From Methanobacteriota archaeon (GTDB taxonomy: Archaea > Thermoplasmatota > Thermoplasmata > SG8-5 > JAGLSY01), in contig JAEHCO010000001.1 of assembly GCA_020697715.1 (NCBI GenBank), positions 874,149 to 938,148 on the forward strand: 64,000 nt of DNA. Reading direction: 5' to 3'. The position numbers and the translations under genes were made by a program. Of this stretch, positions 24,655 to 59,741 are shown in pieces. The number at the start of each line of letters is the position of its first letter. Position 1 is the first letter of the stretch. A model generated the notes under the pieces. It was not told the DNA's origin. It made no database searches and saw only the letters and a program-made list of their open reading frames with translations.

Positions 24655-27600
24655 CTAAGGTATCATCCAGGGATAGAATCCATTAGAGTATATCCAGTAA
24701 GCTTGACCGATCTGGAAAGCGGCTCCATCAGGCATGGGCTCGATACCGTAAGTTGACATATCATTGAACCTCTCGATGGTCATGACCATACCTCCAGATT
24801 CCACTTTCAGATTGCCTGCTGTATAACCCTCAGTATCTGATGGGTAACCCACCATGTTCCAGCCTGGTTGCAGAGTGACGACAGTTCCTGATGGGGCGCT
24901 TCCAGTCTCGCCCATTGTAAGAAGATTATCTCCATCATTTCTAGTCACATACATCCAGACACCCATTGTATTATCCACATCGGGCATATCTTGAGGTAAG
25001 CCAGCTGCTGCCTGTGCCTTATCATAGCACTTCCAATGGTCAATTGCATCTGCAGGATCATACCACATTATCGAGCTCCAGGTAGTTCCTCCATCTCCAA
25101 AGATGGTATCATTGAATATTATGTCCACTGAATTGTCCACATTCACTGGGAATGATACAAATCTCCATCCTACATCCATCCCCATGTCATATGGAATCTC
25201 TGGAAGGAAGCCAGCTATGTAGATGGCAGTTGCATATGATCCTGCCCAATTGCCAGAAGAATCCTGCCCTCTGACCCATAGCTTATTCCATTCTCCAATG
25301 CTCCAGCCGGCTGTTACAGCCCCTGGTATGAAGACAGTGACATCCTCATTGATCTCATCCCACACTCCATCCACGACATTCATTGGAGTTCCTGGCCAGT
25401 TTGCGGTTTCTCCCAAGCACCATTCAGCTGCAGTGATGTATGACTCACCAGTCATTGAATCATCAATTATGGCATTAAGGTTCACTGAGTCTCCTGGTTC
25501 TATGGGATTGATATCGCTAACAACACTTCCCGGCACTGTGATCGGGGGCGTGTTATCCACGCCATGTTCTATTGTGAAGTCCATTGATTCTGAATAATCA
25601 CTAAGAACTGCATAAGTTGCAGTTCCAAGGCCGACTACTTTTATTCTGTAAGTGTCCGCATCTTCAAGGGCGCTTATGTCCCATACCAAGCTTGTTTGAC
25701 TACCTGGCAATGGAGCACCGTTTATCTTGATATATTCCTGACCGCTGTTCGGGCTGTAATAGACATCTACGGACGTAGCATCAGATATTGTCCAATCAAT
25801 TGTGTAAGTGGTCGTGGACGTGATGGTCTCCCCACCAATTGGATTTACTAAATCCGCGGTAGGATGGTTCCCGCCAAGTAGCCACTGAATTGTTTCATCA
25901 AGTAATTCCGCTCTCTCCAGGTCGATGGTCGGTGGAGATCCAGCTGGATCCCAGTTCCCGCCTGTATTTGTCGAATCGATCATATTGTGTGAGAAGGCAT
26001 TGAAGGCTATCCTGGCCGTACCTGCAGCTCCACCACCTGTCTGCGCAACTCCCGCGGCAGTTCCACCATATTCATGATCATTATAATCCCATATGGCAAC
26101 CCCTGGGGCTATGGCATTTATATCATCTGGCCAGAACCTGCTTGAGCCGTAAACATCCTGCTCAAGGTCCATATTGTCCAAGTTGTAAATATCATTCAGA
26201 ACATGTCCATTATCTATAACCATGAAAGGATCTGTGCCTGGTGGACCACCACCGCCTTCATCTCCACCACCGCCATCAGCATCGTCTCCGAGGTATTCGG
26301 CCTTCAGATAGTCCTCACACCAGGTGACATCGGGATCTGTTCCAACTAAACTCATATCCCATGCTATGTCCTGACCCACTATGTAGGCCATTGGAACTGT
26401 TCCTTGGCTGGTCAATGGCTGGTCGAGATAACCTGCCAGTGCCTCTCTGTCATCAGCACTCAATTGAGGGAATCCTTCAGATGGGACCCAAATGATCATG
26501 GAAGCCTGATTAAGATCCTCGGTCGATGGAGAACCCAATACATTCATATCCCAATGACTGTAGGTCCATCCAGTGTATTCCAAATTATTCATCCAGTCCA
26601 GTTCATAGGGTGAGCCATCTAATGGAGATATACTGCCTATGTCGTCATCGACCAGCATTATCAGTGGCCCTCCGGTCGTGGCACTTCTGGTGCTGAATGT
26701 GTAATATCCTCCTCCATAGTCATCATAGGTGGATCTTCCATACATATCGGCGGATTCCACCCAGAACTCGTATTTCGTATCTCCCAAGAGTCCTGTCATT
26801 GGTATCTGATGATCCATGACGAGGTGATCATCATGAATAATTGTCCATGTAGGCGAGCCAAACACTCTGTAATACACAGTGCTATTCGCATTTTCATCGG
26901 TATCCCAGGTCATTATGGTAGACACTCCAGATATCTCACTTGCAAATACATTTGATATGACTGGCTCATGAATATCAATTAATGCATATGCTATGGAGTC
27001 ATGAATAGGAGATGTATCTGAATAAGTGGTGGTTATGGTCTCACCGTCACTGACCTGTAATTTTCCATCTCCTGGCGCTGCGATCCCCATATCTGTTAAT
27101 ATAGAGCCAGTATAAACACTTGAATTGAAGTCCAGGACATTCAATGTGACGATCTCTGAATCCCCACTAACACTTCCTGTGATCGTTATATCAACTGTAG
27201 GAGGAAAGCTATTGGTATCCTCCAATCTGAAATTTATGATATCCGAATCATCATAGACAGATCGATCCATCTGAATAAGACCATGGCCATCATCGAAGTT
27301 CCCTGTCGCGACCAGGGCGAAGTTCTGAGGACCTATTGCGATGTTCGAAGCATCGATCCTGATGGTGTAAATACCTGGAGATGGAATATTCAGATATGCG
27401 CATTCCACATTGTTCAATATATCATATGAACCATTGAACATGGATTCTCCACCTGAGAAGACATTTCCCTTGTATTCCATTGCGCCAGGTGCGATCAATG
27501 TCAGATCCAGATCATTGACCAGTGCCTTTGCGGCTGCTGGATCTCCTTGATAATCGGACCAGACCAAAGATATCTTCAATGGCTCAGAGGCATCTGTAAC

Positions 27601-29421
27601 ACTGATCTCATATTCCATATAGTCTCCAGTGACCATGCCCTGGGATTGATCAATGACCATCATTTCTTTTGAATCTCCTATGAAGTAAAGGCTATTATCC
27701 AGATGGATCCTGCCCCATCCCTCGTCCATATTGGGGATATCCGGGGTTCCAATGTCAACAGCCCCGTTTATCATGGTAGCTTTGAGAAGAGCCGCGGACG
27801 GACTCCATCCATTGGCATTTACAGGATATCCTTTAGGATACCATCCTTCTCTGTAATATTGGCGGACCATGGCAGCTGCTCCACCTGCTGCGGCTGTTGC
27901 CCAGCTTGTTCCCTGCATTGTTTGATATCCGCCGCCTCCATCAACTGACTGAACTGATTCACCAGGAACCACGATGTCTGGCTTGATACGGCCATCCATC
28001 GCAGGCCCTCTACTGCTGAATGCTGATACAGTGATCCCATCACTGCTGGCCGAGCCAACTCCTATCACATTCTTTGATTCGGCCTGGCAATCTATAGTGT
28101 ATCCTGATGGTCCATCACCGCCTACTGACCAGAACATGGAGAAATCCTGACTATCATAGACGTATGAGTCGATCATGACACATTGATCCCTGTATCCTGA
28201 ACCACCACCCCAGCTATTGCTCTGTATCTTTGAATCGTAATTATCTTCTGTGAATTTGAATAGATCATTATAGTAATCCTCGGGCGGGTATACATATTGC
28301 CATTCAAGGATATCAGGTGTCGCTGCATCATCTTCTCTCATTATGTCCTGCATCACGATCTCCGCCATGAAAGCATGACCATCATATGTACCAGGATTCC
28401 AAATTCCATAAGGTGCTCCATCTCCTGCTATGACACCGGCTGCGAAGCTTCCGTGAAAGGCTGAACCTGATTCATCCCCTAATTGGCCATCTGCACCTTC
28501 GGGAACATAGTTAGCCTTGACCTTGAGATAATTGCCTGGAATGCCATATACCGCCCCATTGAAACTATCATGATCAATATCTGAAAGCCCAATTCCCTCT
28601 GCAATACCCGAATCTGCGATAGTGACGACCTCTCCGCGGCCATTAATGCCCTGTGCATGAAGTGGGCGGGTCGTACTTCCGGATTGGACCAGTGGAACAT
28701 TATCATCATTCGAAGGCTCTGCGAGTACAAATTCAGAGACCCATTTGACCTCTGGCCTTGATATTAAATAACTTATCAAGGAAGCATCAACTTCCGCATT
28801 TACAGTATTGACTTCTCTGGAATTCGCAATGCCCAGTATATTTCCACCAGAGTTTTTCGTGATCTCCCTCACGATGTCGCCATTGGACGAGCCCGGGAAT
28901 AATGTGATACTTAATTTCACGATTCCAGTCGCTGTTGCCAATGCCGGGTCCACTTTGTAAGCTGGCTCGTAGCTTCCGCACCATCTGATATCCTGAAGTG
29001 CATTGACCTTGCCTTTGGCATTCGTGTTCATCGTGACGAGAAGTGCATTGTCAGGAATATAACTGACAATGGTCGCCCCTGCCTTTATTATACCACTCTT
29101 CCACTCCTCGGTTATCTTGCCAGGAGCTTGGATGATATATGGCTGTTCCACCCAGGGAGAATTACCATAGGAATTTGCAGATGCGATGATTGGAGCATTA
29201 CCGCCAATTGGGTCGAATGATCCATATTTCAATTTGATCATACCATTCGAATTGCCAGTTGGTATGGCATCATCAATATCATTGGTAGGGACAATATCAT
29301 CATGACTATTATCTGCAAAACCAATTGTTATAGATGAGAATATAAGAGAAATAATTATAAAACCTACAAATAACCTGTTAACACTACCTAGCCCACTTTT
29401 TCTGTTCCCCATATCTTCCAT
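24655..29421 (-). CDS. Secreted S8 subtilase, 1588 aa, with FN3-like and other accessory domains and the shared C-terminal domain
   Basis: Signal peptide; triad IADSG / FHGSF / GTSWA; DGRIKPD; GWGRI; ends GWNMVGYP...AYWIY...WMIP. Confidence 0.88.
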   Translation of the reverse strand: MEDMGNRKSGLGSVNRLFVGFIIISLIFSSITIGFADNSHDDIVPTNDIDDAIPTGNSNGMIKLKYGSFDPIGGNAPIIASANSYGNSPWVEQPYIIQAPGKITEEWKSGIIKAGATIVSYIPDNALLVTMNTNAKGKVNALQDIRWCGSYEPAYKVDPALATATGIVKLSITLFPGSSNGDIVREITKNSGGNILGIANSREVNTVNAEVDASLISYLISRPEVKWVSEFVLAEPSNDDNVPLVQSGSTTRPLHAQGINGRGEVVTIADSGIAEGIGLSDIDHDSFNGAVYGIPGNYLKVKANYVPEGADGQLGDESGSAFHGSFAAGVIAGDGAPYGIWNPGTYDGHAFMAEIVMQDIMREDDAATPDILEWQYVYPPEDYYNDLFKFTEDNYDSKIQSNSWGGGSGYRDQCVMIDSYVYDSQDFSMFWSVGGDGPSGYTIDCQAESKNVIGVGSASSDGITVSAFSSRGPAMDGRIKPDIVVPGESVQSVDGGGGYQTMQGTSWATAAAGGAAAMVRQYYREGWYPKGYPVNANGWSPSAALLKATMINGAVDIGTPDIPNMDEGWGRIHLDNSLYFIGDSKEMMVIDQSQGMVTGDYMEYEISVTDASEPLKISLVWSDYQGDPAAAKALVNDLDLTLIAPGAMEYKGNVFSGGESMFNGSYDILNNVECAYLNIPSPGIYTIRIDASNIAIGPQNFALVATGNFDDGHGLIQMDRSVYDDSDIINFRLEDTNSFPPTVDITITGSVSGDSEIVTLNVLDFNSSVYTGSILTDMGIAAPGDGKLQVSDGETITTTYSDTSPIHDSIAYALIDIHEPVISNVFASEISGVSTIMTWDTDENANSTVYYRVFGSPTWTIIHDDHLVMDHQIPMTGLLGDTKYEFWVESADMYGRSTYDDYGGGYYTFSTRSATTGGPLIMLVDDDIGSISPLDGSPYELDWMNNLEYTGWTYSHWDMNVLGSPSTEDLNQASMIIWVPSEGFPQLSADDREALAGYLDQPLTSQGTVPMAYIVGQDIAWDMSLVGTDPDVTWCEDYLKAEYLGDDADGGGGDEGGGGPPGTDPFMVIDNGHVLNDIYNLDNMDLEQDVYGSSRFWPDDINAIAPGVAIWDYNDHEYGGTAAGVAQTGGGAAGTARIAFNAFSHNMIDSTNTGGNWDPAGSPPTIDLERAELLDETIQWLLGGNHPTADLVNPIGGETITSTTTYTIDWTISDATSVDVYYSPNSGQEYIKINGAPLPGSQTSLVWDISALEDADTYRIKVVGLGTATYAVLSDYSESMDFTIEHGVDNTPPITVPGSVVSDINPIEPGDSVNLNAIIDDSMTGESYITAAEWCLGETANWPGTPMNVVDGVWDEINEDVTVFIPGAVTAGWSIGEWNKLWVRGQDSSGNWAGSYATAIYIAGFLPEIPYDMGMDVGWRFVSFPVNVDNSVDIIFNDTIFGDGGTTWSSIMWYDPADAIDHWKCYDKAQAAAGLPQDMPDVDNTMGVWMYVTRNDGDNLLTMGETGSAPSGTVVTLQPGWNMVGYPSDTEGYTAGNLKVESGGMVMTIERFNDMSTYGIEPMPDGAAFQIGQAYWIYSNGFYPWMIP

Positions 29422-29648: not shown

Positions 29649-29669
29649 ATTATGCTTTTCTTAGGCCGC

Positions 29670-32600
29670 CTATGGTATTATCCAGGCATATGCTCCTGTG
29701 GAGTACACCCAGTATCCTTCACCGATCTGGAATTGATCGATGTCCGGCATGACCTCTGTGTTATAGGCTGCTGCTCCATTGAAGCGCTCCACTGCTGTGA
29801 CTGAGCCACCAGAATCTGTTTTCAGATCTCCGGCTGTGTATCCCTCGACCTGTGATGGGAAACCGACCATGTTCCAGCCAGCCACCAGGTTTATCGTAGT
29901 ACCTGATGGATTGACGCCAGTTACCTTGATAAAGCCATCTCCCACAGTGTCCACGAATATCCAGGCTCCCATTTCCTCATCCATGTAATTGTGGTTGATT
30001 CCAGGGAATGCCGAGATGTAGGTCTTCCAGTTGCTGCCGGGAGCTGCACTTCCATCATAGTGGTGGAAAGTGTTCCAGGTGGTGTCACCATCTGTATCCA
30101 TCAGTGCATTTGGCAGAGATGTATCTCCAGGTAGTAATGGAAGTGAAACGAAGTTCCAGCCCGCTACTACAGGTATCAGATATTCCGGTGCTGTCACGGT
30201 GACTGTAACCGTAGTTACAGGTCCCCAACCATTTGGTCCGTTCCCACGAACACTCAAGATATGATCGCCAGCACCCCATGAGGACGTGTCAATGACCACT
30301 GTGAAGTTATCGAGTGGTCCATCCCAGAACAGATCGAATGGTGATGCTATTGCATTAGCCAGTCCTATGCCAGGATCGACAGTGTCGAACCATTCCGCAC
30401 CATATAGGAATGGGAACACATTCTCGTCAACGGTCGTATTGTCCACGATATCCGCAGTTAGGGTGATAATGCCTGTTCCTATGGTTATGCTCAGTGGTGT
30501 TACACCATCAGCCAGCACATTGAAGGCTCCGGGTAGTGTATCGAACTTGGAAACAATTCCCGAGTCTATACTATCGTATGTGCCATCTGTGGCAACCACG
30601 TAGTACCAGCAGTTCTCTGGATCCAGTATCTCATTGGTATCCACATACTGTGATGTACCAGCTCCAACGTTTCCAACCAGGCTGTATGGCCCTTCATACC
30701 ACTCGCTATTTGCCTCATCGGCCTTGTAGATGTCATAACCAGTCACATCATATGCTCCAGCACCATCATCACTTGACAATGTCCATGTCAGTATCAGATC
30801 ATCCGGACTTGTCGTGACGATAGTTTCCACATACATCTCATCAATGCTGACCACATCTGCTGTAGTGGTGTCAGCTGGGTCGGTATCTCGGACTGCAACA
30901 TAGAATGCTCCATTGAATCCAGCACCCAGGTCATATGAGAATTGATCAAGACCTGGTGTTGAGTCTGTGGCCATTAGGGTCTCCTCACCTGCGAATGCTC
31001 CTGTCTGGGAGTAGTAATACTCGAAGGTATCATCGCCAGTGAATCCCGTGGTCGCGTAGAACATGTGTGTGCTGCCTGCAGGTACACCCTGGAACTGCCA
31101 CTGATGCTCTAATGAATAAGAGGATCCTGCAGCACCATAATCGTAGGTCACCCATACGTAGTCAAAGTATACTGCATCTGCTCCGCCTGGATCATTGTTG
31201 ATGTAATGGACATCCAATGCCGCTATCTCCGCAATGGTGTCAACGCCATCTGCAAAAATATTATAGCTGGCCACTCGGTTATTATCACCATCGGTAGGCA
31301 CAATACCTGTTCCCAACCAAGCACCTCCTTCGTTGATGGAGAATTCTACATCATTTGTGGCACCGTGGCCCGCCTGAGTAGAGAACTTCATCCAAAGGGT
31401 TGCTGCACTTACTGGATCGGGGTTTCCAGATGTGTCAAAATTATCGATCCACATAATACCATTCTTGCCAATTGTGTTGGTTGTTCCGTCATCTCCATTG
31501 ATCTGCGCGACAGTTGTTCCTGCTGTATCTCCAGCCTCTATAACACTTGGCAGTGCATTGGCTGTTCCTCCGCCTGCTGAAAATAACTCAGTGATATCCT
31601 CTGTTACAGCATCTGCTGGCATCTGTGTCGCAGCATATGTGTTAACGATACCATTGTTTTCCACAGCTATATCACTGCTAGCTTGCTGGTAAAATGTTGA
31701 TCCTGCACCTCCAGGCTGACTTAGAAGATCAGTTACTGGGCCAGGTGGCATCGAGTTCACAGTGTAGATATTGATCAATGTCTCATTGTTTATAGCCACT
31801 GCATCTCCTGGAAGCATGCTCATCACGGATATCTCGTACTCTGCCTCATCATCGAAGTCATACATCCAGTTCATCTGCTCGGTCTCGAGTTGAGCCAGCG
31901 TCAGAGTGGTGTCTTTAACATTAGTGTAGAGTGAACCCAGGCCTGCTGTCTTCTTCGATATCCTTATATCGTCAACATTCCAGCCAGTTCCACCACCTGC
32001 AAAGTCATCACAACCAGCCCAGTATCTTACCCAGACTGTATTGTCACCAAGCCATGGTGTCAGGTCCACAGAATCTTCTACGAATCCTCCGCTTGCTCCG
32101 GTGAATGCATCAGCACCTCCGTCTCCATCTATTGGATTCGCATATCCAGTTCCCAAAGCAGCATCATAGCCATTGGTCGATACGACCCTTGTCCATGCGG
32201 CTCCATCGGCACTGACATCCAGAACTCCGCCGTCCCAGCCAGCTTCCCAATCGTAGTTGTGGAACCATTTCCACTCTGCACTTGTGAAAGCTCCGGTCAG
32301 ATCAAAGGGTCCGAATTCCAGTTTGTAGTCATGAGGTCCAGCCCCATAATTACCATTGCCGAAGTCCCATGATGTTGCCGGGCTATTGGCTGCATTCTCT
32401 CTCAGATCCCAACCAGGTGCGGCTGGTCCATCAGGTGTCCAGCCTGGTAGTATTCCACTTTCACAATCATCATTGAGTAGGTATGTGGTAGAGCCGAGAT
32501 GATTGATCTCGATCTTTACTGGGAAAGGCCCTTGAGTTGTTGTTCCCGCATTCCCTATGGTTGCATCGATGGTTCTTGGTCCCCATTCATATGTGTTTCC

Positions 32601-34985: not shown

Positions 34986-35402
34986 CTTACCAGTCCACAG
35001 TCCATATTGTTCCACTGCCGACCTTCACCCAGTACGCCTCACCACGCTGTAGGACATAGTTATTCGCCAGTGTGATGATATTGTATGGCCCAGCACCGTA
35101 GCCCTCAACAGAGGTTGCTCCAGTATCTGCTTTGAGATCGCCAACATCATATGATGAATCATCCTGGGCGGGATAACCAATTAGGTTCCAACCAGTGTTC
35201 AGAGTGATGTCTGTATTTGTTGGTTCTTGACCCTCTCCGACACTCAGGAGTGCTCCGGCTGTTGTGAGCTTCACCCACATGCCCTTCGCATTGTCCACGG
35301 ATGGCATATCCTGTGCTAATCCTGCAGCGAACTGTGCCTTGTCATAGGTCTTCCAATGGTCAGAAGCATCTGCTGGATCGTACCAGCAAACAACTTCCCA
35401 TG
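34986..35402. repeat. 417-bp exact direct repeat, copy 1 (matches 51655-52071)
   Basis: Base-by-base comparison by eye shows identity up to the first mismatch at 35403/52072; similarity continues to about 35530. Confidence 0.85.
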
Positions 35403-38400: not shown

Positions 38401-38865
38401 CAATATTCCTCTTATGACATAGCCATTTGATGTTTCTCCTTCCTGGAAGACGTCGACATAATTCGCTATATCCTGCACGGTGTCCATCATACTGGCGGAA
38501 TACATCAGAGATATGGCAACACCATTTCCATTTGCAGCTATATCTGGAGATATCTTCGCCTCGTTCGGTAACTCGCTGACCGTCTTCACATATGGAAGAG
38601 CCTCGGTGATAGTCTTTTCCGATCCCGACATCTTCACTTCATATCCCTTTCCCTGAACATAGGTGATGATATCCACACCTATGGCATCCAGGGCATCGGA
38701 CCACCCCTCCTGAACTGGTCCAGTGAAATCAACGTAATATACGTCCTCCACATCGGCATATGCTTTCTGATCATTATCCGTGGCTAGACTTACTGGCATT
38801 ATCATGCTAACAGCTATGATGATCGATATTAAAACGCCCACGATATTCAATTTTTTAAATTCCAT
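34987..38865 (-). CDS. Secreted S8 subtilase, ~1290 aa
   Basis: Triad IADTG / HGHGTH / SGTSQA and oxyanion AASNDG. Start taken at MEFKKL (38865). Ends WTVDW. Confidence 0.9.
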   Translation of the reverse strand: MEFKKLNIVGVLISIIIAVSMIMPVSLATDNDQKAYADVEDVYYVDFTGPVQEGWSDALDAIGVDIITYVQGKGYEVKMSGSEKTITEALPYVKTVSELPNEAKISPDIAANGNGVAISLMYSASMMDTVQDIANYVDVFQEGETSNGYVIRGILKDASVVNTVASFKDVHYISPYIENELKDESGMQQIGGFLWVDDPDSDPDTPYRDTGGGFGTYVNHLGWTGDGVIVGIADTGIGDGTTGDANHVDFENRVIGGTEYGAGDWADGHGHGTHCAGLIVANGFEGTGVTHSGFGDYYAGMGLAYDAEIYAQKIFTDAGGWAGPADYYTILEDAQRAGVMVHSNSWGGSTYGAYDARDEAYDHAVRDADDNAAGNQQLIITVAASNDGSGTNTIGSPGNAKNVITVGATENYWPDMANYGNDVDPNTDADNPDQIIDFSSRGWTDDNRIKPDVVAAGSGTLSPRSTDASIDCLYGTYDDDNRYEWCSGTSQANPTVAGGVAVIYEWYLATYGQIITPSMAKALTINTAVDIGAADIPNRDEGWGRMFLPTIMDPPAPFILKDEVGELTPGVTDEFTFSYADASEPLKITLAYTDLYATGGANPTLQNQVNLEIESPLGDIYHGNAFLNGWTPANTDPQAIWDTTGDGYDNVNNVECVYIPSGSLEVGQYTVRVIGTNILRDCDFDGTDDQDYSLVIYNAVDVSQQGTIDLDQNVYAGEDVATITVGDTDLNTLPGSSETVNININSNTEPLGETVTLTETGPDTSIFESTITLSATDGGGILHVSNGDTITATYNDLNDGSGPATVTDTATIDSGVLPVTGLTVEWWGQAIQDVYFEDFEGDGSPTFAELGWTTGGGSNDWEIDTPSGLGGNYGNADPNGAFSGTFSIGNDLTGIGTYPGDYEINLGTDSNYIYSPAIDCSLATGTTLYFQRYLNVEQPLYDHAYLEISTNGVAWNEIWANTATIADSAWGLQTYDISGWADNQATVYIRFEIGGSDGSWQYCGWNIDDVRVEALVSGGTNDNCLNWTLSGDDGAGADDVAQYNIYRADNAAGPWDAGALIDSVPAGTDTYTDPGVGEFDVTTWWYVVRAVDDVGNEDTNTNAVPEPGGVAPVPYDIDTSTAAPGDWIFVSFPITASGDVLTVLDDANWGNGDTTWEVVCWYDPADASDHWKTYDKAQFAAGLAQDMPSVDNAKGMWVKLTTAGALLSVGEGQEPTNTDITLNTGWNLIGYPAQDDSSYDVGDLKADTGATSVEGYGAGPYNIITLANNYVLQRGEAYWVKVGSGTIWTVDW

Positions 38866-51415: not shown

Positions 51416-51613
51416 CTTCAAACCTCTCCATTTAACGAATAAAGTGAATGTTGCCCACATCACTCCAACGATCTTAGTACATTTCCTATATTTTCAGAAA
51501 TCCACATCGATTTATTTATAGTTAAGCTTTTTGGTATATAGTATATATAGATATGTAATTTGTATGATAAATAAGATATATTATCAGACGAATAATGTCA
51601 AAAATGTAAAAAT

Positions 51614-51654: not shown

Positions 51655-52071
51655 CTTACCAGTCCACAGTCCATATTGTTCCACTGCCGACCTTCACCCA
51701 GTACGCCTCACCACGCTGTAGGACATAGTTATTCGCCAGTGTGATGATATTGTATGGCCCAGCACCGTAGCCCTCAACAGAGGTTGCTCCAGTATCTGCT
51801 TTGAGATCGCCAACATCATATGATGAATCATCCTGGGCGGGATAACCAATTAGGTTCCAACCAGTGTTCAGAGTGATGTCTGTATTTGTTGGTTCTTGAC
51901 CCTCTCCGACACTCAGGAGTGCTCCGGCTGTTGTGAGCTTCACCCACATGCCCTTCGCATTGTCCACGGATGGCATATCCTGTGCTAATCCTGCAGCGAA
52001 CTGTGCCTTGTCATAGGTCTTCCAATGGTCAGAAGCATCTGCTGGATCGTACCAGCAAACAACTTCCCATG
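51655..52071. repeat. 417-bp exact direct repeat, copy 2
   Basis: Identical to 34986-35402 (offset 16669). Confidence 0.85.
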
Positions 52072-55000
52072 AGGTGTCACCATTACCCCAGTTCGCATCA
52101 TCGAGAACTGTTAGGACATCTCCAGATGCTGTTATCGGGAATGAGACAAAGACCCAATCCCCTGGCGCGGCTGTGCTGGTGTCGATGCCATATGGCACTG
52201 CTGGAGTTCCACCAGGCTCCTGCACAGCATTGGTGTTGGTATCTTCATTGCCAAGGACATCCTCGCCCCTGACCACGTACCACCACAATGTTCCATCTGG
52301 TAGTCCTTTGTCCAGATCTGTGTATATGCCTGTGCCTGCTGGTACACTGGCTATGTAAGCTCCTGCATCCCATGGGCCAGCTGCATTATCAGCTCTATAA
52401 ATGTTGTATTGAACCAGATCATCTGCTCCTGCTCCATCATCGCCGGATAAGGTCCAGTTGACAGTATTGTGATCATCTGGATTGGTTATCAGGGACCAGC
52501 TAAAGCCATCTATTCTGGTGTCGCGGGCTGTCGTGCCCCATTCTATCGTACTACCACCCTGGCCTGTTCCTGCCACTACCAGGTAGTAATTGCAGGTCCA
52601 TTCACTCGCATCAAGCTGGCTGGCTCCAAGTACATTTGTTGTGAATGTCGCCCTTTCCGCGGTAGGTGGTGAGCTTGTGGATGCGTATAATCTAACGACT
52701 ATCGAGTCGCCCAGGTCCAACTGAGTTGCTGGTGGTGTCCAGGTAGCGGTGTTTATTCCTTCCGATGAAACTGTTCTTCCAGCAATACCAACTGCAGTTC
52801 CGGATGTGATCTCAGTCTCTACACCTCCACTGTCCCTCTGCCAGACCCTTATGCCTGCATAGACTGGAGCACGGTTACCCAGATTACCTCCGCTCTGCAT
52901 TGTTGCTGACTGGGTGGTACCAAGTAAATTGGCTGCCAATCCATTGACATTGACTTCACTGGATACACCTCTCATGTATCTTGTCTCTATGGTCGAGTCA
53001 CCAGGACCCCAGTACTCCACTGTTAGGTCGCTGGTCGATGCAACTCCTGCATCGACTATCGCGGTGTCTGTTACAGTAGCTGGTCCTGATCCGTCATCCG
53101 CGTCATCGTATGTCGCGGTAATGACATCATTGTGAGATACCTGGAGTATTCCTGCTCCATTGGTAGCTGATATCGTGATGGTTCCCTGGAATGTGCTGGT
53201 GTCATCTCCAGTTTCTGTGAGTGTAACAGTTTCAACACCAGTTTCTGTGTCACTGTCGATGTCCACGACAACGGTCTGAGGTGAGTTGGTGTTCGTATTG
53301 AGATCCCAGTCCATTACCTGGATCATCACTGTGTCCTCGCCAGCATATAATTCTTCATCTAGCTGAATAGAACCTTGAGAGGTGATTGGTATCATTCCAC
53401 CAGATACGACAAGAGAGAAGTCCTGGGGGCCCTGGGCTACGTCCCCAGTTCGTCCATATACTTCCACTGTCCAGATACCGCTCTGTGGGTTCTGAACGAA
53501 GACATTTTCCAGATTGTTGAGGTCATCTCTGTGATCCGAGCCCCACTGGTTCGCTCCTGTTCCAGAAGCTGAGTAAAGGCTTGTCCACAAGCCATTGTTA
53601 CCATAATATTCCACTCCACCTGGTGATATGACCTTCAGGTCTAGGTTATTGATCAATGCTCTTGCCGCATTGGTGGTTCCAAGTGCGGCAGGGTCTGTCC
53701 AGGCAAGTGAGATCTTCAATGGGTAAGTACCATCGACATAGGTCTGGCGTGAGTACATATTGCCTGAGTCCAGTGCCTGTGGGTATTCATCAATTTGATG
53801 ATACTGAGCTCCCAGATTATACATGTATTCCATGTCTGGTGTTCCCCAGCCCTGCTCATTTCTTGTTGCATCTCCCAGATCATACTGGTATGCATCTGCC
53901 ACCAAGAGGGCCTTGATAGTGCTTGAATAAGGAAGTTCTCCCAATGGGTTTGTATCGAAGTAATTCTCCTGCCACATATCATAGGCGATAACAGCTGAAC
54001 CAGCTACGATGGGCGTCGCGCCACTTGTTCCACCAAAGTCATCATAATAATCACCACTAGCATAGCCGCCAACTCTGTTGTCCACCGTGTATATCCAGTC
54101 AAATGGCGCGCACATCTCCGGCTTCTGTCTGCCATCTGCGGCTGGTCCTCTTGAAGGTGTATTTCCCTGTGATTGCAAAAGCCACTCATCATCCGCCATG
54201 TTCGCGGTGTTCTTGTGGAATATGGCTCCTATTGCCATGACGTTCTTTGCACAGGCATCTTCGCTGAGATCTCCCTCGGCGGTTCCATCATTACCATTGC
54301 CGTTTGCCCAGAGAGATAGGACCTTTGGATAATCCACTGCTGCCTGATCATCAGCTGCAGCATTTATCTGATATAGTCCATCCTGTGTTCCGGAGCTCCA
54401 TGAATTTGATTGGACGATGCCGTTCATCCCGGCACTTCCTTCATTGAAATTTCCATTCCAGAGATTTTCAATGGAAGTGTATCTTCCAGTTCCCCAGTCG
54501 GAGAAAACACCCACTGCTTCATAAGCAATTCCAAGTGCGTCGATGTCACCAGCTCCATTTCCGAAGACGATACCTGATGTGCAGGTGCCGTGATCATCAT
54601 TTGATACTGATCCATCTGTGTATATGACATTAGCGAGATCCGGATGGCCAATGTCTATTCCATTGTCCTGAACTTCGGCCAGCATACCAGCGCCAGTGAA
54701 TCCCACTGCTTCGGTGGTATCATGACCCATGAATGTATTGGATGTGATAAGATTCATATATGCTTCTGGCTCCGCATCATGGCCGACAGATCTGACCTCT
54801 TGGATCTCAGCGATGGAATTGATCTTGGATGCGTCTATCGTGCATCTTAGGTATGTGAAACCTGTATTGACCTTGATATCACTGGCTCCCAGTTCCTCCA
54901 GGGATGCCATTGTTCTGAGTATTCCAGCATCTTCATGCAGGACCACTATGACATCGGTCATGCCGGACTTTCCATCCAGGTCTGGATTGATCTTCATTGA

Positions 55001-55288
55001 GGAGATATATGGTTGAATATTATTCGAATATGTCATAAGAAGTCCATTTGATGATATGTCTCCCTTGACCAGGTAGGTTCCATCGTTCATGTAGTTCAGG
55101 AATTCAATACCTGTACTTTCGATGAAGCTCCTCTGCTCGCCATTCGGTAGTTCCGAAAAGCTAACCAGGAAGTACCCATCATCCGTGTCCACATCTGCTA
55201 AAGTGATCGAGCTTGCTGGTATCAGTAAACTAATTGATATCACAGCTACAAATATCAAGCCCACAAATCTATTGCCCATTTTTTCCAT
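51656..55288 (-). CDS. Secreted S8 subtilase, 1210 aa
   Basis: Triad VQDNG / DHGTC / GGTSGATP, oxyanion ANGNG, DGRQKPE; ends WTVDW. Confidence 0.9.
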   Translation of the reverse strand: MEKMGNRFVGLIFVAVISISLLIPASSITLADVDTDDGYFLVSFSELPNGEQRSFIESTGIEFLNYMNDGTYLVKGDISSNGLLMTYSNNIQPYISSMKINPDLDGKSGMTDVIVVLHEDAGILRTMASLEELGASDIKVNTGFTYLRCTIDASKINSIAEIQEVRSVGHDAEPEAYMNLITSNTFMGHDTTEAVGFTGAGMLAEVQDNGIDIGHPDLANVIYTDGSVSNDDHGTCTSGIVFGNGAGDIDALGIAYEAVGVFSDWGTGRYTSIENLWNGNFNEGSAGMNGIVQSNSWSSGTQDGLYQINAAADDQAAVDYPKVLSLWANGNGNDGTAEGDLSEDACAKNVMAIGAIFHKNTANMADDEWLLQSQGNTPSRGPAADGRQKPEMCAPFDWIYTVDNRVGGYASGDYYDDFGGTSGATPIVAGSAVIAYDMWQENYFDTNPLGELPYSSTIKALLVADAYQYDLGDATRNEQGWGTPDMEYMYNLGAQYHQIDEYPQALDSGNMYSRQTYVDGTYPLKISLAWTDPAALGTTNAARALINNLDLKVISPGGVEYYGNNGLWTSLYSASGTGANQWGSDHRDDLNNLENVFVQNPQSGIWTVEVYGRTGDVAQGPQDFSLVVSGGMIPITSQGSIQLDEELYAGEDTVMIQVMDWDLNTNTNSPQTVVVDIDSDTETGVETVTLTETGDDTSTFQGTITISATNGAGILQVSHNDVITATYDDADDGSGPATVTDTAIVDAGVASTSDLTVEYWGPGDSTIETRYMRGVSSEVNVNGLAANLLGTTQSATMQSGGNLGNRAPVYAGIRVWQRDSGGVETEITSGTAVGIAGRTVSSEGINTATWTPPATQLDLGDSIVVRLYASTSSPPTAERATFTTNVLGASQLDASEWTCNYYLVVAGTGQGGSTIEWGTTARDTRIDGFSWSLITNPDDHNTVNWTLSGDDGAGADDLVQYNIYRADNAAGPWDAGAYIASVPAGTGIYTDLDKGLPDGTLWWYVVRGEDVLGNEDTNTNAVQEPGGTPAVPYGIDTSTAAPGDWVFVSFPITASGDVLTVLDDANWGNGDTSWEVVCWYDPADASDHWKTYDKAQFAAGLAQDMPSVDNAKGMWVKLTTAGALLSVGEGQEPTNTDITLNTGWNLIGYPAQDDSSYDVGDLKADTGATSVEGYGAGPYNIITLANNYVLQRGEAYWVKVGSGTIWTVDW

Positions 55289-55529: not shown

Positions 55530-55559
55530 TGTTCGATGGCTAATCTTAATTTGTTGCTC

Positions 55560-58500
55560 CTACATCACAAAGAGCATTACCCAGTCCCAATCATCCATCC
55601 ATCCAGGTATGGTTCCAGCTGGATCAATGTAGAACTCTCCCCAAGGAGTCAGGTATTGATTGCCGGGTATTCCTCCTTCAAATACACCCAGATCCTGCAT
55701 TCCCATGGAATTGAGGGTCAGCATCTCAGATCCCATTCCGGGAGTTATGCTGAAGGTTCCATCAAAGGGCATTCCAGGTGGAGGTGGGAAGAACATTACG
55801 TCACTGGACCACCAATCCATTGGCCCATCTGCATGTTCGAAATATCCCTGTGCCAGCATACCATCCCTGTCAAGGAATACATATTCTGCCAGGAAGGGAA
55901 CTCCTATTGGAACCGGACTTCCGTCTGGAGGACTGGTCATCATGACCTCATAAGGCACACCACAAACAACATCCTGTATTGACATGCCAGCTCCAACATT
56001 GACATAGGTGTAATTGTAGCCATTGTTGCCGTATGGCATCTCGAAGGTGGCATTGACGAATATAACATCTCCATCCGTGTAGTTCATGATGTCCACGGAG
56101 TACTGTCCTGTTGGTATTGTCACTGTGTTTCTGGTATTCCATGCTCCCAAATTCCTGTCGAACCATGTCACTGCCACATCCGCGCCTGTTGATTGCAGTG
56201 GATTGTAGAAACCACCGCTGAACCCATCATATAGATACACTGTTCCAAATACTGGGTATGGGTCAGAGATCACGGCTGGAGCATTCAATTGCCACAGTAC
56301 ATTGGATGAGGAATACACCCAGTATGCATTTCCGTGTGTCATCAGCACTGTGTCGAGCATCACTGTATCGGTAATCTTATAGGGCTGGCCAGTATCGTAA
56401 TATGATATCATGGTCACCTGTGGGGGTAATGTATCGGATGCCATCTGCGAGATCATATCTGGATATCCAATAAGATTCCAGCCAGCATACAGCATGAACT
56501 CCGCATCCGCTGGGTCGTCGCCGCCAATACCAGTTGTCAGATATTGATCGCCAGTATTGCCTGTTATGTGTATCCATAATCCCATCGTATTGTCAAGGTC
56601 TGGCATGGTCTGAACACCCGGGAAGTCCTTGTCGTAGAACTTCCAGTGATCATTGAAATCTGTTGGGTCATACCATTTCAAATGGTCCCAAGTTATGCCT
56701 CCATCACCCCATGCATGCAGTGAGTCATCCAGCACCGTGGTGGCCGGCCCGTTCATCTCAGATGGGAAGGATATGAACCTCCATGCCGGCCATGGTCCTG
56801 CTGGATCGGATATCGTTATATTGTATGGGTCTGGCCCTGGTATGATGATGCCAGGAGCCTCAGGTATTATCAATCTTGATGGTGTCGAATCATTATCATA
56901 TCCAAGAATGAACTCTGGAGCTGGTTTATCATAATGGATGGTCGCGGCAAGGTAGTTGACACTCACCTGCATTCTGGATGTTGTCTCGTACACACCCCAT
57001 CTAATTCTATTTCCTGAGACATAGTTTCCTGGGTCAACGGTTATGCTCCTGGTCATCGTGATATCAACGCCAGTGGCTCCATACATCGTGGTCCCGATGG
57101 GCTCCCAGTATGATCCGGTGGATTGGTCCTCGACCCATATTTGATAGTCGCTGTCATCATCGCCCTGACCGACGAATGTCAGGTCTATTTGGGTGATATA
57201 AGCTGGATCCTCCAGCACCTCCATCGAGTTCCATATGAATATCTCATCCTGGTTGCCAGGGTCTACCGATACGGCCCAGTCACTGTCCGTAACAGATGCG
57301 GAAACATACTGAGCATCCGTGAACTCAGGGGCTGAATTGTAATCAGGTCCTGTTCCCACAGAGCATGAGTTGGTGTCCATGAAGTAGCAATAATCCGGCG
57401 GTGTTGCCTCGGTATCTCCAACATAATCATATGTCGTGGAACCTGCTCCGCCACCGCCAGCCGTTGCATCAAGCCAGATCTCAACAAATACGCGATCACC
57501 TGCTGATATGGTGGTCGCAGGTATGGTATCTGTCCAGCTGAATTCCGTGTATGAATATCTGGCATACACGTCTGTCGGGCATTGTGCTGGAGTTGGGTTC
57601 AGAAGTGTCATTGAGGGGTACTCGTAGATCTTGGCATACAGTGTGCCGGAGACATCCTCCGTGGTAACTCTCCCTTCAATGAAGAAATGCCAGTCACCAT
57701 CAACATCCGTATCCTGTGCATATGGATCAGTCATCCATCCTACATCCCCTACATGATATTGACCTGCAGCAGGTATCGGGCCTGTTGTGTTCGTCATGAT
57801 ACTTGCTTGATCTGGATCTGCTGGTAACAGGGACATATCTATCCCGAAGGAGTTCTCCACATGCAGATAATATTGCTCACCAACATAGATCGTTATCGAG
57901 TAAATATTTCCCCAGTTGGCATCCGAGTCAAGTGCATGCACAAATATAGTATGCACTTCTCCAGCCAGCCAGCCCTCAGCAGATATGTCAATTGTGGCAT
58001 ATCCATCCTCATTGGGGCTGTCATATGTACCATCAGATGGTGTGACCAATGTGCCAGTTCCATCTACTCCTACAGTATCAATGAAATATTCAGCATCAAC
58101 TATATTTTGGATATCGGAGAAAGATGTGTAAACTGTTGTCGTGGCCGCTCCACCTGTTGGATTCGGGTCAGCGTATCCTGAAGCAACTGGCCCGCCACCT
58201 ATATCGAAGCTGCCGCTTACCACCAGGGCGAAGTCCTGATCGGTAGCTGGTGTAGCTGAGACAGAGTCCTGCTGTATGTCCGTTCCATTGACATAGATAC
58301 TCCACTGGCCGATCTCTGGTGTCTGGACATTGACACATTCCACATTGTTTAGTGTATCTGCAACTGGGACTGGAGAGGGAAATGCCCATCCTCCTACGAA
58401 CAAGTTGCCATTATACACTAATCCACTTGGAGAAATAACTGTAAGATCTATATCATTTATCAGTGCTTTTCCAGTACCTGTGTTCGAAGGTGCGGCCACA

Positions 58501-59741
58501 TCTGTCCAGGCCGTAGTTATCTTCAATGGCTGTGAGACACTGTTTATGAAGATAGTATCATATAACTGACTGATTCCAGTTTCAAGAAGGATATTCTGAT
58601 CATCATAATAAATATCGAATCCAGGCTCTATCATATTGGTCAAATTCACTCTGCCCCATCCCTCATCGTTGTTAGGGATATCGGATGTTGCCATATCGGT
58701 CGCACCATTGATCATCGCGGCTCTTGATATTGCGGGACTGGGCATAGCTCCGTTCACATCATTGTAATACTGTGCAAAGACCGCTACAGCACCAGTTCCG
58801 ATGGCTGCTGATCCTCCTGTTCCTGTTGTATATTGATAATCTGCATTGATCGCCTCATTCCCTGTAACAGCCCCTGGATAGTGGGATGTCACTCCAGAGC
58901 CCCAAGACGCTGGAGCTACAAGATCAGGCTTTATTCTACCATCAGCAGTGGGCCCAGTCGGGGATACAGAATATATCTCTTCAATATTGTCTGCATCTAA
59001 ACTCTTGTGAGGTTTGTATCCCTCGCTCACAGCTATTGCCAGGCTGTTCTTTCCGCAGGCACTTTCCATCACATCTGCATTTCCGGGGGCCATAATGTTC
59101 AGTAATGGCTGGTCTCCTGGTGTTGTAGAATCTGCATCTCTGGCCGCCGTATCTATCTTATTGGCATTCAAACCATATTCACCAATTGCCCCGCCTCCCC
59201 ATGAATTGGATAGAGCAAAGGTTCCTCTTTGACTGGCATCAGTGAATACATCGGCGATATCTCCGTTGAACCATGCAGCGCCATCGCCAAAGACCCGCTC
59301 GGTTATTATGCTAGCTCCTGGAGCCACACCAAGGCCGTAGAGCTTTCCATCCACTGGGTCAAATTGACCACTGGATCCATCTCCAGCCATCCAACTGACG
59401 AAAGGAGTGCTCATTCCATAGGAATCCTCGGCGACACCATCTGAGGCATCGACCTCGCACCAGTCAACCCAATGGTCAACTCTTCCTGCAAAGTCAGTGA
59501 AAAGGGCGGGTGTACCACCATCTCCAGTGTCCAGGCCAGTACCCACCTCTCCTATGAGGATACCCGTACCATCGTATCCTAATCCTTGTGCCCTGGTCGC
59601 TCCTGTTATATCTGTTAGAACTTCCCCCGCACTGACATTCTCCGTTGTATCGAAGGTGGTAAAAGGAACCACCATCATCAAACTCAAAATTATTACTATC
59701 AACTTACCCACATTTGCTGCTCTATCTTCCATTAATGTCAT
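55560..59741 (-). CDS. Secreted S8-fold pseudo-peptidase, 1393 aa; the shared domain is internal and followed by an extra C-terminal module
   Basis: S8 scaffold motifs are kept (SNSWG, GPTADGRIKPDLVAP, AAMINGA, EGWGRVN), but the triad positions read EVGTG, YGMST and TGTGG. Confidence 0.82.
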   Translation of the reverse strand: MTLMEDRAANVGKLIVIILSLMMVVPFTTFDTTENVSAGEVLTDITGATRAQGLGYDGTGILIGEVGTGLDTGDGGTPALFTDFAGRVDHWVDWCEVDASDGVAEDSYGMSTPFVSWMAGDGSSGQFDPVDGKLYGLGVAPGASIITERVFGDGAAWFNGDIADVFTDASQRGTFALSNSWGGGAIGEYGLNANKIDTAARDADSTTPGDQPLLNIMAPGNADVMESACGKNSLAIAVSEGYKPHKSLDADNIEEIYSVSPTGPTADGRIKPDLVAPASWGSGVTSHYPGAVTGNEAINADYQYTTGTGGSAAIGTGAVAVFAQYYNDVNGAMPSPAISRAAMINGATDMATSDIPNNDEGWGRVNLTNMIEPGFDIYYDDQNILLETGISQLYDTIFINSVSQPLKITTAWTDVAAPSNTGTGKALINDIDLTVISPSGLVYNGNLFVGGWAFPSPVPVADTLNNVECVNVQTPEIGQWSIYVNGTDIQQDSVSATPATDQDFALVVSGSFDIGGGPVASGYADPNPTGGAATTTVYTSFSDIQNIVDAEYFIDTVGVDGTGTLVTPSDGTYDSPNEDGYATIDISAEGWLAGEVHTIFVHALDSDANWGNIYSITIYVGEQYYLHVENSFGIDMSLLPADPDQASIMTNTTGPIPAAGQYHVGDVGWMTDPYAQDTDVDGDWHFFIEGRVTTEDVSGTLYAKIYEYPSMTLLNPTPAQCPTDVYARYSYTEFSWTDTIPATTISAGDRVFVEIWLDATAGGGGAGSTTYDYVGDTEATPPDYCYFMDTNSCSVGTGPDYNSAPEFTDAQYVSASVTDSDWAVSVDPGNQDEIFIWNSMEVLEDPAYITQIDLTFVGQGDDDSDYQIWVEDQSTGSYWEPIGTTMYGATGVDITMTRSITVDPGNYVSGNRIRWGVYETTSRMQVSVNYLAATIHYDKPAPEFILGYDNDSTPSRLIIPEAPGIIIPGPDPYNITISDPAGPWPAWRFISFPSEMNGPATTVLDDSLHAWGDGGITWDHLKWYDPTDFNDHWKFYDKDFPGVQTMPDLDNTMGLWIHITGNTGDQYLTTGIGGDDPADAEFMLYAGWNLIGYPDMISQMASDTLPPQVTMISYYDTGQPYKITDTVMLDTVLMTHGNAYWVYSSSNVLWQLNAPAVISDPYPVFGTVYLYDGFSGGFYNPLQSTGADVAVTWFDRNLGAWNTRNTVTIPTGQYSVDIMNYTDGDVIFVNATFEMPYGNNGYNYTYVNVGAGMSIQDVVCGVPYEVMMTSPPDGSPVPIGVPFLAEYVFLDRDGMLAQGYFEHADGPMDWWSSDVMFFPPPPGMPFDGTFSITPGMGSEMLTLNSMGMQDLGVFEGGIPGNQYLTPWGEFYIDPAGTIPGWMDDWDWVMLFVM

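Follow-up and report, generated by a model that had tools for sequence, protein, structure and literature searches.

The eight large, predicted secreted proteins encoded side by side in this DNA share a C-terminal domain (CTD) of ~175 amino acids, which is a previously undescribed, almost all-beta domain and which, in Thermoplasmata-type archaea, generally tags large secreted proteins at the C-terminus. Docking or surface attachment is the most economical reading of the CTD. Specifically, we propose, at a probability of roughly 45%, that this module lies close to the membrane and keeps or docks proteins on the cell surface by non-covalent binding.

The window, i.e., the whole stretch of 64,000 nucleotides that was analysed, contains on its minus strand eight co-oriented open reading frames (ORFs) which, according to ORF calling, fill the whole span of positions 24655–59741, as described in an earlier note on this DNA. 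Their products are very long (603–1993 aa), multi-domain and highly acidic, and the intergenic gaps measure 146–406 bp. The first gene of the array is g8; the flanks carry genes for ribosomal protein L15e and an archaeosine-type TGT/DUF5591/PUA protein of an archaeal host, which is of the Thermoplasmata type. The features of the array are as follows:

24655..29421, minus strand: g1, secreted S8 subtilase, 1588 aa, triad intact; CTD at 24658-25203
29670..34580, minus strand: g2, non-enzymatic secreted protein, 1636 aa; CTD at 29673-30194
34987..38889, minus strand: g3, secreted S8 subtilase, 1300 aa, triad intact; CTD at 34990-35523
34990..35524, minus strand: near-identical DNA tract shared with 51659-52193 (CTDs of g3 and g7)
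39119..45100, minus strand: g4, secreted divergent S8 subtilase, 1993 aa, triad motifs; CTD at 39122-39655
45247..47058, minus strand: g5, short non-enzymatic secreted protein, 603 aa; CTD at 45250-45801
47282..51463, minus strand: g6, secreted S8 subtilase, at most 1393 aa, triad intact; CTD at 47285-47836
51656..55288, minus strand: g7, secreted divergent S8 subtilase, 1210 aa, triad motifs; CTD at 51659-52192
55560..59741, minus strand: g8, S8 pseudo-protease, 1393 aa; CTD at 56262-56819, penultimate, followed by the T module
55563..56261, minus strand: T module (233 aa) at the C-terminus of g8

The cargo of the array is predicted to comprise five active subtilases of peptidase family S8, one pseudo-subtilase and two non-enzymatic proteins, a division that had been proposed before and that an alignment of the S8 regions confirms. 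Pfam recognises Peptidase_S8 over its full length in g1 (E 2.1e-30, next to a weak fn3 match), g3 (2.3e-41) and g6 (1.7e-32) and in part in g8 (6e-13); g4, g5 and g7 are devoid of Pfam matches at E≤0.01. Within the S8-region alignment, Asp, His and Ser plus the oxyanion Asn are kept in g1, g3, g4, g6 and g7. With these residues in place, g4 and g7 rank as divergent paralogues within the family, g4 having weak NCBIfam S8-type matches and being paralogous to g1, g3 and g6, and g7 being 40.7% identical to g3 over the full length. In g8, the triad is altered (Asp to Gly, His to Met, Ser to Gly) and the oxyanion Asn is retained. From family S8 at large, the array members differ in their great length, multi-domain build and acidity, and g8 additionally in the loss of the triad. 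As for the non-enzymatic proteins, g2 contains CARDB (Pfam, 8.9e-9) and a stretch similar to part of an accessory region of M36 peptidases; its exact start is in doubt by a few residues, P0011, its form in the database, having 1631 aa. The C-terminal 386 aa of g5 share 71% identity with g6, which in its database form has 1377 aa. Judged from these sequence relationships, the eight genes constitute a tandem cluster of mosaic paralogues.

In a hydropathy scan, each of the eight proteins shows exactly one hydrophobic segment, located N-terminally, in line with the export segments noticed earlier; small residues following Pro or Gly suggest that this segment is cleaved. The scan detects no hydrophobic segment in the last 60 residues of any of the eight proteins and NCBIfam gives no match on the C-termini, which confirms the reported absence of a C-terminal transmembrane (TM) anchor and rules out a PGF-CTERM signal.

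Each array protein contains a single CTD copy, marked by exactly one occurrence each of W.F[VI]S[FL]P and GWN[LM][VI]G[YF]P in 8/8 proteins and by HWK in seven of them (NWK in g2). The aligned domains are 29–98% identical in pairs. A profile built from 76 domains retrieves the eight copies at E-values from 1.6e-44 to 2.2e-65 (g1, 2.1e-58; g2, 1.6e-44; g3, 3e-61; g4, 1.1e-58; g5, 1.4e-64; g6, 2.2e-65; g7, 1.2e-60; g8, 9.4e-56) and no further copy in the window. As already noticed by the earlier reader, the domain is C-terminal in seven genes and penultimate in one: it ends 1–2 residues before the stop in g1–g7, whereas the domain envelope of g8 is 241 aa away from the stop. The claim that the CTD is made of two related halves found modest support; hhalign pairs half 1 with half 2 at a probability of 55.9% (E 1.1e-4, 63 columns), aligning W.FVS.P with GWN.VG.P and MG.W(V/I) with G.AYWV, so that the domain may be internally duplicated. 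Across the 76 CTDs, conservation is complete or reaches at least 90% at W13, W42, W57, W83, W117, Y60, Y154, Y171 and W172.

The CTD of g6 served as the reference for alignments and for the structure model, which was obtained with AlphaFold2 from the 76-sequence alignment (pLDDT 95.7, pTM 0.90) and is nearly all beta, the helices being short (4–7 residues). A match to a characterised family would count against the tag proposed earlier; none was found in Pfam (76 CTDs, E≤1), NCBIfam or PDB sequences. Foldseek returned nothing from the PDB at E≤0.001, and the sole BFVD match (E 3.3e-3) has no clear functional meaning. A dockerin is ruled out by the all-beta model and by the lack of a dockerin match in the eight proteins (E≤0.01) and the 76 CTDs (E≤1). 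[quoted passage not shown] Wall-binding modules of the SLH, CWB2 and LysM type are without a Pfam match in the eight proteins and the 76 CTDs, and the pre-peptidase C-terminal domain (PPC) is likewise unmatched; its restriction to secreted peptidases is not shared by the CTD, most of whose cargo is not peptidase.

A search with the CTD profile yielded 4782 cluster representatives at E≤1e-3, and tblastn confirmed 542 genomic stretches with a CTD. Position and cargo were read from the best 150 of the 4782 representatives; 75 loci of ~20 kb each were drawn from the best 80 of the 542 stretches. The domain lies at most 5 residues from the protein end in 143 of the 150 representatives and at most 3 residues from the stop codon in 92 of the 98 complete locus ORFs, and this survey upholds the idea of a C-terminal tag on diverse secreted cargo. 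All 75 loci belong to Thermoplasmata-type assemblies; as far as sampled, the CTD is confined to this lineage. Pfam matches were obtained for 28 of the first 50 representatives (22 had none) and include S8, M14, C11, metallophosphatase, NosD/beta-helix, FG-GAP, PKD, PQQ, CARDB and Laminin_G, with C1, C13, GH32, GH130, BNR, a solute-binding protein, amidase_3 and transglutaminase as additional cargo. The cargo hence spans peptidases, phosphatases, glycosidases, beta-helices and propellers, and one tag on many cargoes is what anchoring or sorting modules typically show, but is rarely seen with modules that bind substrates.

Two or more CTD copies are present in 21/75 loci, 20 of which are tandem co-oriented arrays; the window array of eight is the largest seen, the other loci covering ~20 kb each. 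The loci retrieved from a single assembly contain at least 19 different CTD genes; the family has tens of members per genome. The suggestion that the 35-kb array is a dedicated protease display system does not hold, given that its genes are mosaic paralogues of a large family and that arrays recur in related loci.

The CTD is under constraint, dN/dS within the domain being 0.13–0.22. Between g3 and g7, a near-identical tract of ~535 nt has limits that coincide with those of the CTD: dS is 0.033 in the CTD and 1.6 in the preceding 100 codons. In 30-nt windows, identity within the tract is 87–100% (100% from ~35434 to 35015); outside, it is 40–90% upstream and falls from 77% to 43% downstream. 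Together, the low dN/dS and the match between tract and domain limits speak for constraint combined with modular exchange.

According to the reading that we prefer, the array proteins would be exported by the Sec route with cleavage of the signal peptide, and the CTD would be kept on the mature protein as a membrane-proximal foot. This foot would bind a component of the envelope—possibly a surface glycan or lipoglycan, a membrane-anchored CTD or T-module protein, or other CTDs—and thereby hold the protein non-covalently at the cell surface, so that proteases and other enzymes could work as a cell-bound coat instead of diffusing away. Cleavage of the signal peptide, CTD retention in the mature protein, attachment to the surface and ligand identity are all inferred. 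Export is supported by the single N-terminal hydrophobic segment of the eight array proteins, which is also seen in 75 of 105 CTD representatives with a Met start and >350 aa. Membrane-proximal placement is indicated by rare TM-anchored variants, most members being without a C-terminal membrane anchor: in four of the six locus ORFs with a non-terminal CTD (L029, L039, L063 and L067), a linker of ~50 aa connects cargo and CTD to a TM helix with a basic tail behind it, and P0046 and P0119 have the same build, with the CTD just before linker and anchor. Counting against a surface foot, the 75 loci yielded no conserved partner gene in the 10 kb on either side of CTD genes, and the fold points to no particular function. 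Moreover, if the N-terminal hydrophobic segments were uncleaved signal anchors, the CTD would form the distal tip of every protein.

By a second reading, a lectin- or carbohydrate-binding-module (CBM)-like CTD would stick the enzymes to detrital polymers, mineral surfaces or other cells rather than to the envelope of the producing cell. It is rather unlikely in our estimation. Such adhesion would suit the many invariant aromatic residues of the domain and the polymer hydrolases that make up much of its cargo. N-terminal CTDs (P0082, P0097, L071) are membrane-distal, and, far from an anchor, fit distal ligand or substrate binding at least as well. Among these, P0082 carries the CTD at the N-terminal, extracellular end of a membrane-anchored protein. 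In the transmembrane regulator P0013, two tandem extracellular CTDs precede PKD, the TM helix and HTH domains on the cytoplasmic side, suggesting ligand sensing. However, substrate-binding modules normally vary with the substrate, and here one module is found on peptidases, phosphatases, glycosidases, solute-binding and adhesin-like repeat proteins; its position is fixed within 1–3 residues of the C-terminus, the TM-anchored variants place it beside the membrane, and neither a CBM or lectin family in Pfam nor, at the Foldseek threshold, any PDB structure matched.

A third reading, a sharpened version of the earlier proposal, centres on the T module. If the CTD were a dockerin-like tag, it would bind a receptor module, with T as the candidate, and T proteins such as g8 would act as scaffolds or adaptors of multi-enzyme complexes. 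The T module, the extra module of the earlier note, is not peculiar to the array: it recurs in 21 proteins, and in 21/21 it adjoins a CTD or a divergent CTD-like domain, which makes it a candidate partner of the CTD. In nine of them, the order is cargo, CTD, T; in four, among them P0239 with two T–CTD-like units, a signal is followed by T and a CTD-like domain and the opposite end bears a canonical CTD; in eight, T precedes a divergent CTD-like domain. By hhalign, the divergent domains match the CTD profile at 95.0% (E 3.6e-8) and 95.7% (E 9.5e-9). T is also rarer than the CTD (3 T-bearing versus 111 CTD ORFs in the window and the 75 loci), as a scaffold-and-cargo arrangement would predict; g8, catalytically dead judging by its triad residues, heads the array, and in L001, too, a CTD–T gene is the immediate upstream neighbour of a g6-like protease gene. 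For T itself, a weak lead points to a CarboxypepD_reg-like beta-sandwich (score 0.88, below the tool's line of 0.9). As in dockerin–cohesin systems, different enzymes have one module in common, mostly at the C-terminus; T would be a conceivable partner module and the inactive g8 a conceivable scaffold. Yet, dockerins are ~70-aa helical modules with two calcium-binding loop-helix repeats, in contrast to the ~175-aa, nearly all-beta CTD; T, like the CTD, matches neither dockerin nor cohesin, and no cohesin match was found in the window proteins or the sampled neighbours of related loci (flanks ≤10 kb). The label "cellulosome-like" is, in the strict sense, not supported. Furthermore, neighbouring domains of one chain may form a single structural unit in cis, T-bearing proteins possess no membrane anchor themselves, none of the 21 shows many T repeats, and no multi-receptor scaffold was found in the window or the sampled loci. 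We regard this reading as distinctly unlikely.

Sorting or secretion would imply dedicated machinery, T9SS- or sortase-like, that recognises the CTD and removes or modifies it while the protein is transported or covalently attached. In being strictly C-terminal and present on nearly all large secreted proteins, the CTD resembles the T9SS CTD, LPXTG and PGF-CTERM. Like the T9SS CTD of Bacteroidota, the archaeal domain is folded, beta-rich and placed at the extreme C-terminus of diverse cargo including proteases, and it is likewise restricted to one phylum, in which each genome encodes tens of tagged proteins; it differs in being about twice as long and internally duplicated and in occurring before TM anchors and at N-termini. 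PGF-CTERM, the mark recognised by archaeosortase in Euryarchaeota, likewise marks the C-termini of archaeal S-layer and other surface proteins, which become anchored at the surface as a result; however, this tripartite signal is short, includes a TM helix and is removed by cleavage, whereas the CTD is a folded domain and the eight proteins lack a C-terminal hydrophobic segment. Sec-type N-termini are already present, the CTD is large and well folded in the model, and its internal and N-terminal positions are at odds with a transport signal, the placements in P0082 and P0013 arguing for a binding module rather than an export signal. No conserved candidate machinery gene lies near the arrays in the 75 loci. 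Neither a T9SS nor an outer membrane is known for the Thermoplasmata-type host lineage, and the latter point also counts against sorting, which we hold to be highly unlikely. A role solely in structure or maturation, as folding or stabilising cap or intramolecular chaperone without targeting or binding, has very little probability: the CTD is compact and highly conserved and many secreted subtilases possess C-terminal beta-sandwich extensions, but most CTD cargo is not protease, the PPC family gives no match, and the domain also occurs in tandem pairs and at N-termini.

The closest match in logic to the array and its family is offered by cell-wall-binding paralogue families of Firmicutes, such as the CWB2 proteins of Clostridioides difficile and the SLH-domain proteins. 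These comprise dozens of paralogues per genome, many in tandem clusters, in which one non-covalent anchor module is combined with varied domains, including proteases, and the ligand is a secondary cell-wall polymer. The CTD differs from them in its unrelated sequence and fold, in the lack of a Pfam match and in its archaeal host.

Going one step further, the CTD might be the handle of a so far undescribed surface display specific to Thermoplasmata-type archaea, either as a CTD base layer (a modular, enzyme-bearing S-layer that includes the rare TM-anchored CTD proteins) or as a CTD–T tag–receptor pair that gathers proteases and other hydrolases in cell-bound complexes; in this extended form, the proposal is unlikely. 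If true, such surface display would explain how sediment archaea keep many exo-enzymes at the cell.

The C-terminal domain common to the proteins of the eight-gene array (CTD, ~175 amino acids) is a large undescribed family and not a feature of this array alone. In the window, it is encoded by the eight genes g1 to g8, listed here together with the T module, i.e., the stretch that follows the CTD of g8.

24655-29421, minus strand, open reading frame g1
29670-34580, minus strand, open reading frame g2
34987-38889, minus strand, open reading frame g3
39119-45100, minus strand, open reading frame g4
45247-47058, minus strand, open reading frame g5
47282-51463, minus strand, open reading frame g6
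51656-55288, minus strand, open reading frame g7
55560-59741, minus strand, open reading frame g8
55563-56261, within g8, T module (tail of 233 amino acids, recurring in 21 proteins)

AT-rich spacers of 146-406 bp lie between the genes, and comparison of their upstream regions revealed no common motif; for g2, g6, and g8, the position of the start codon is uncertain, by 3-16 residues compared with the database forms. Each protein carries one occurrence of the CTD motifs described in the earlier note, the aligned domains share 29-98% pairwise identity, and a 76-domain profile recovers these eight copies (E 1.6e-44 to 2.2e-65) and no further copy in the window. Reading frames, motifs, and profile agree on eight co-oriented genes with one CTD each, as originally described. 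The domain ends one to two residues before the stop codon in g1 to g7, and 233 further residues follow it in g8. Its proposed build of two related halves is detectable but modest (hhalign probability 55.9%, E 1.1e-4).

A hydropathy scan found exactly one hydrophobic segment in each of the eight proteins, always N-terminal, with small residues after Pro or Gly coming next, and no C-terminal one, in line with the claimed lack of a C-terminal transmembrane anchor. The signal peptides claimed for all eight are, thus, seen as far as the N-terminal hydrophobic segment is concerned, and their cleavage is predicted from this pattern. The proteins are strongly acidic (net charge -0.08 to -0.12 per residue) and, by all-against-all BLAST, are mosaic paralogues with modules common in differing combinations. 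Pfam matches comprise Peptidase_S8 in g1, g3, g6, and, partially, g8, as well as CARDB in g2, with no match in g4, g5, and g7; NCBIfam adds weak S8-type matches only, in g4 and g7. When the S8 regions are aligned, Asp, His, Ser, and the oxyanion Asn are kept in g1, g3, g4, g6, and g7, and the triad positions of g8 are occupied by Gly, Met, and Gly. This alignment, together with Pfam, bears out the cargo count of the array: five proteases predicted to be active, one that is dead, and two non-enzymatic proteins.

The CTD is without match to a characterised family, as judged by sequence and fold searches. Pfam gave no match on the CTDs of g1 to g8 at E<=0.01 and nothing consistent on 76 CTDs at E<=1 (13 families, each in one of the 76 members); NCBIfam gave none at E<=0.1, a PDB sequence-profile search none at E<=10, and PHROGs none for either the CTD or the T module, and the ESM Atlas returned unnamed archaeal clusters only. 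The AlphaFold2 model built from a 76-sequence alignment (pLDDT 95.7, pTM 0.90) has about fourteen strands plus three or four short helices; it supersedes an earlier model from the eight window copies alone (pLDDT 72.9), for which the PDB search was uninformative. The invariant CTD residues comprise W13, S17, P19, W57, W83, G116-W117-N118, G121, P123, and Y171-W172. Foldseek with the newer model yielded no match at E<=0.001 in either PDB or BFVD. The best PDB match, peptidylglycine hydroxylating monooxygenase (E 0.015, TM 0.22), was rejected, as the likeness amounts to no more than "two beta-sandwich lobes". The single BFVD match at E 3.3e-3 (TM 0.53, 18% identity) is A0A8D9C8P8, a 587-amino-acid "putative hemin binding protein" recorded for an uncultured marine phage; it may stem from mis-binning of a cellular protein or represent a viral receptor-binding protein. 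Complex prediction of a CTD homodimer scored 0.15 against a mark of 0.42, which leaves self-association neither supported nor contradicted. Searches of PMC and bioRxiv full texts yielded no description of the domain, and passages of PMC9123169 and of bioRxiv 10.1101/2020.03.09.984617 make no mention of it.

A profile of the eight window copies, searched against 1.84 billion proteins, matched 4782 cluster representatives at E<=1e-3; of these, 2092 remain at E<=1e-10 and 211 at E<=1e-30. In 143 of the best 150 of the 4782 representatives, no more than five residues separate the end of the CTD from that of the protein, and 92 of 98 complete CTD reading frames in the related genomic loci end within three residues after the domain; its position is C-terminal and not random. 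The cargo is secreted and diverse, as Pfam scans of representatives attest: 28 of the first 50 carry recognisable families—S8, M14, and C11 peptidases, metallophosphatase, NosD/beta-helix, FG-GAP, PKD, PQQ propellers, CARDB, Big_5, and Laminin_G—and 22 have no match, with no Pfam family having its best stretch on the CTD itself. A second search adds, among the 120 of 217 matches listed, C1 and C13 peptidases, GH32, GH130, BNR, solute-binding proteins, amidase_3, and transglutaminase; these matches have no single Pfam accession in common, and every organism name given among them is that of a Thermoplasmata archaeon. Short representatives (<=320 amino acids) were considered as proteins made of signal peptide and CTD only and were discarded; all are without an N-terminal hydrophobic segment and resemble gene fragments.

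In contigs of one genome per species, 542 CTD stretches were confirmed, of which the best 80 were inspected and 75 loci kept, originating from 21 assemblies labelled as Thermoplasmata, Thermoplasmatota, Methanomassiliicoccales, Ca. Proteinoplasmatales, or "Methanobacteriota" archaeon. Of the 75 loci, 21 contain more than one CTD gene, and in 20 of these 21 all copies are co-oriented; as many as five are packed into 11 kb. A single assembly contributes at least 19 distinct CTD genes to the loci retrieved, and the window array of eight is the largest observed, the loci spanning ~20 kb at most each. No conserved partner gene was found near the CTD genes of these loci. Their largest cluster of neighbours, a heterogeneous group formed by single linkage, includes AAA_16 plus TPR STAND NTPases (three of four members scanned) and one DUF11 protein with a membrane segment recognised by eye. 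Such STAND-type NTPase genes (encoding ~1000 amino acids) directly adjoin CTD genes in several related genomes, e.g., at L068:30-3131, L034:5353-8322, and L070:10502-13477 (L numbers denoting related loci), and none is present in the window. In four to six genomes (L058, L065, L069, L072), CTD gene pairs are followed downstream by two large Fe-S/flavin oxidoreductase genes of HdrA/MvhD-like type (Pyr_redox_2, Fer4, FlpD), an arrangement that probably reflects conserved synteny and not a functional link.

On the basis of its fixed C-terminal position on nearly all kinds of large secreted proteins, its tens of copies per genome, its frequent tandem clusters, and its occasional direct tether to a membrane anchor, we favour the CTD as a non-covalent surface-retention or docking module, at a probability of roughly 0.45. 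Anchoring modules of like logic are CWB2 or SLH domains, the T9SS C-terminal domain, and dockerins, from all of which the CTD differs in sequence and fold. Of the "cellulosome-like protease display system" proposed in the earlier note, the idea of a tag is, thus, retained; a special status of the array as a system and the likeness to cellulosomes are given up. That the CTD of these diverse secreted proteins would rather serve in adhesion to substrates or particles is deemed rather unlikely.

A specific receptor pair formed by CTD and T module is a still more doubtful explanation. Among the 21 T-bearing proteins, nine are built as cargo, CTD, and T; four as signal segment, T, a weak CTD-like domain, and, at the other terminus, a canonical CTD (with two T units in one of the four); and eight as T followed by a ~220-amino-acid C-terminal domain missed by the CTD HMM. 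The weak and the missed domains align with the CTD in hhalign (95.0%, E 3.6e-8; 95.7%, E 9.5e-9), which, at the level of profiles, shows them to be divergent CTD relatives; T thus always adjoins a CTD-family domain, in either order, and may possibly be a partner or co-module of the tag. It is rare, being present in three reading frames (g8, L001:1-912, and L053:1438-5913) versus 111 with a CTD in the window and the 75 loci, and it gave a sub-threshold CarboxypepD_reg lead only in the ESM Atlas. The CTDs of g8 and L053 form one group in a rapidly computed tree that carries no support values, and the other window CTDs fall into two further deep clades common to other genomes.

The C-terminal position would also suit a cleaved sorting signal, a quite improbable reading given unusual architectures, which argue against a pure export signal. 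Six locus reading frames have a non-terminal CTD, and four of them (L029, L039, L063, L067), like the protein representatives P0046 and P0119, continue with a ~50-amino-acid disordered linker, a transmembrane helix, and a short basic tail, making the CTD a membrane-proximal domain. It is located at the extracellular N-terminus of membrane-anchored P0082 and at the N-terminus of P0097, which is without membrane anchor. P0013 (862 amino acids) combines a signal segment, two tandem CTDs, PKD, a transmembrane helix, and cytoplasmic HTH domains of HVO_0163 and MarR type, and looks like a transmembrane transcription regulator with the CTD as extracellular sensor. As predicted architectures, these proteins show a CTD that would work outside the cell, need not be terminal, and may serve as a binding or sensing module. 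A purely structural cap is very improbable.

Exchange of the module between array genes is suggested by the CTD DNA of g3 and g7 (34990-35524 and 51659-52193, 16.7 kb apart), which is nearly identical (dS 0.033), with the preceding 100 codons saturated (dS 1.6). The near-identical tract starts and stops where the CTD does, with 87-100% identity per 30-nt window. This looks like gene conversion of the CTD module, as far as the nucleotide pattern tells; an assembly artefact at the repeat is less likely. Other CTD pairs have dN/dS values of 0.13-0.18.

Ribosomal protein L15e and a DUF5591/PUA/TGT archaeosine-type enzyme, both archaeal markers, are encoded in the array flanks, and GC content is similar in array and flanks, thus giving no mark of a foreign island. 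Elsewhere in the window, a plus-strand citric-acid-cycle block (9044-21841) encodes class I fumarase alpha and beta, succinyl-CoA ligase beta and alpha, aconitase, two ATP-citrate-lyase-type subunits, monomeric isocitrate dehydrogenase, and, inside the block, an AsnC-type regulator; it suggests that the TCA cycle of this archaeon is reductive or reversible. A further group of reading frames lies around a low-GC stretch (6001-8000, GC 0.349). There, a ThsB-like TIR-domain reading frame (6775-7176; Pfam 6e-18, PADLOC ThsB 1.9e-13) overlaps by four bases with one of the 8xMP octameric membrane protein family (7173-7649, 7.5e-40), and the preceding frame at 5873-6655 has no match to any family; together (5873-7649), they may constitute a small TIR-based defence island. 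Near opposite window ends, two proteins (576-2225, minus; 63270-63998, plus) have double zinc-ribbon N-terminal domains and long unannotated remainders.

Uncultured Thermoplasmata-type archaea, including Ca. Proteinoplasmatales, are regarded as protein degraders of marine sediments, owing to their many predicted extracellular peptidases (PMC9123169). One undescribed domain, absent from Pfam, NCBIfam, and PDB, tags peptidases, phosphatases, glycosidases, and adhesin-like proteins, and constitutes a concrete, testable handle on how exo-enzymes stay near the cell and a simple metagenome marker for the "surfaceome" of these archaea. For structural work, the confidently modelled CTD would offer a compact new fold, and, if it truly binds the envelope, it could be used as a display tag for archaeal biotechnology.
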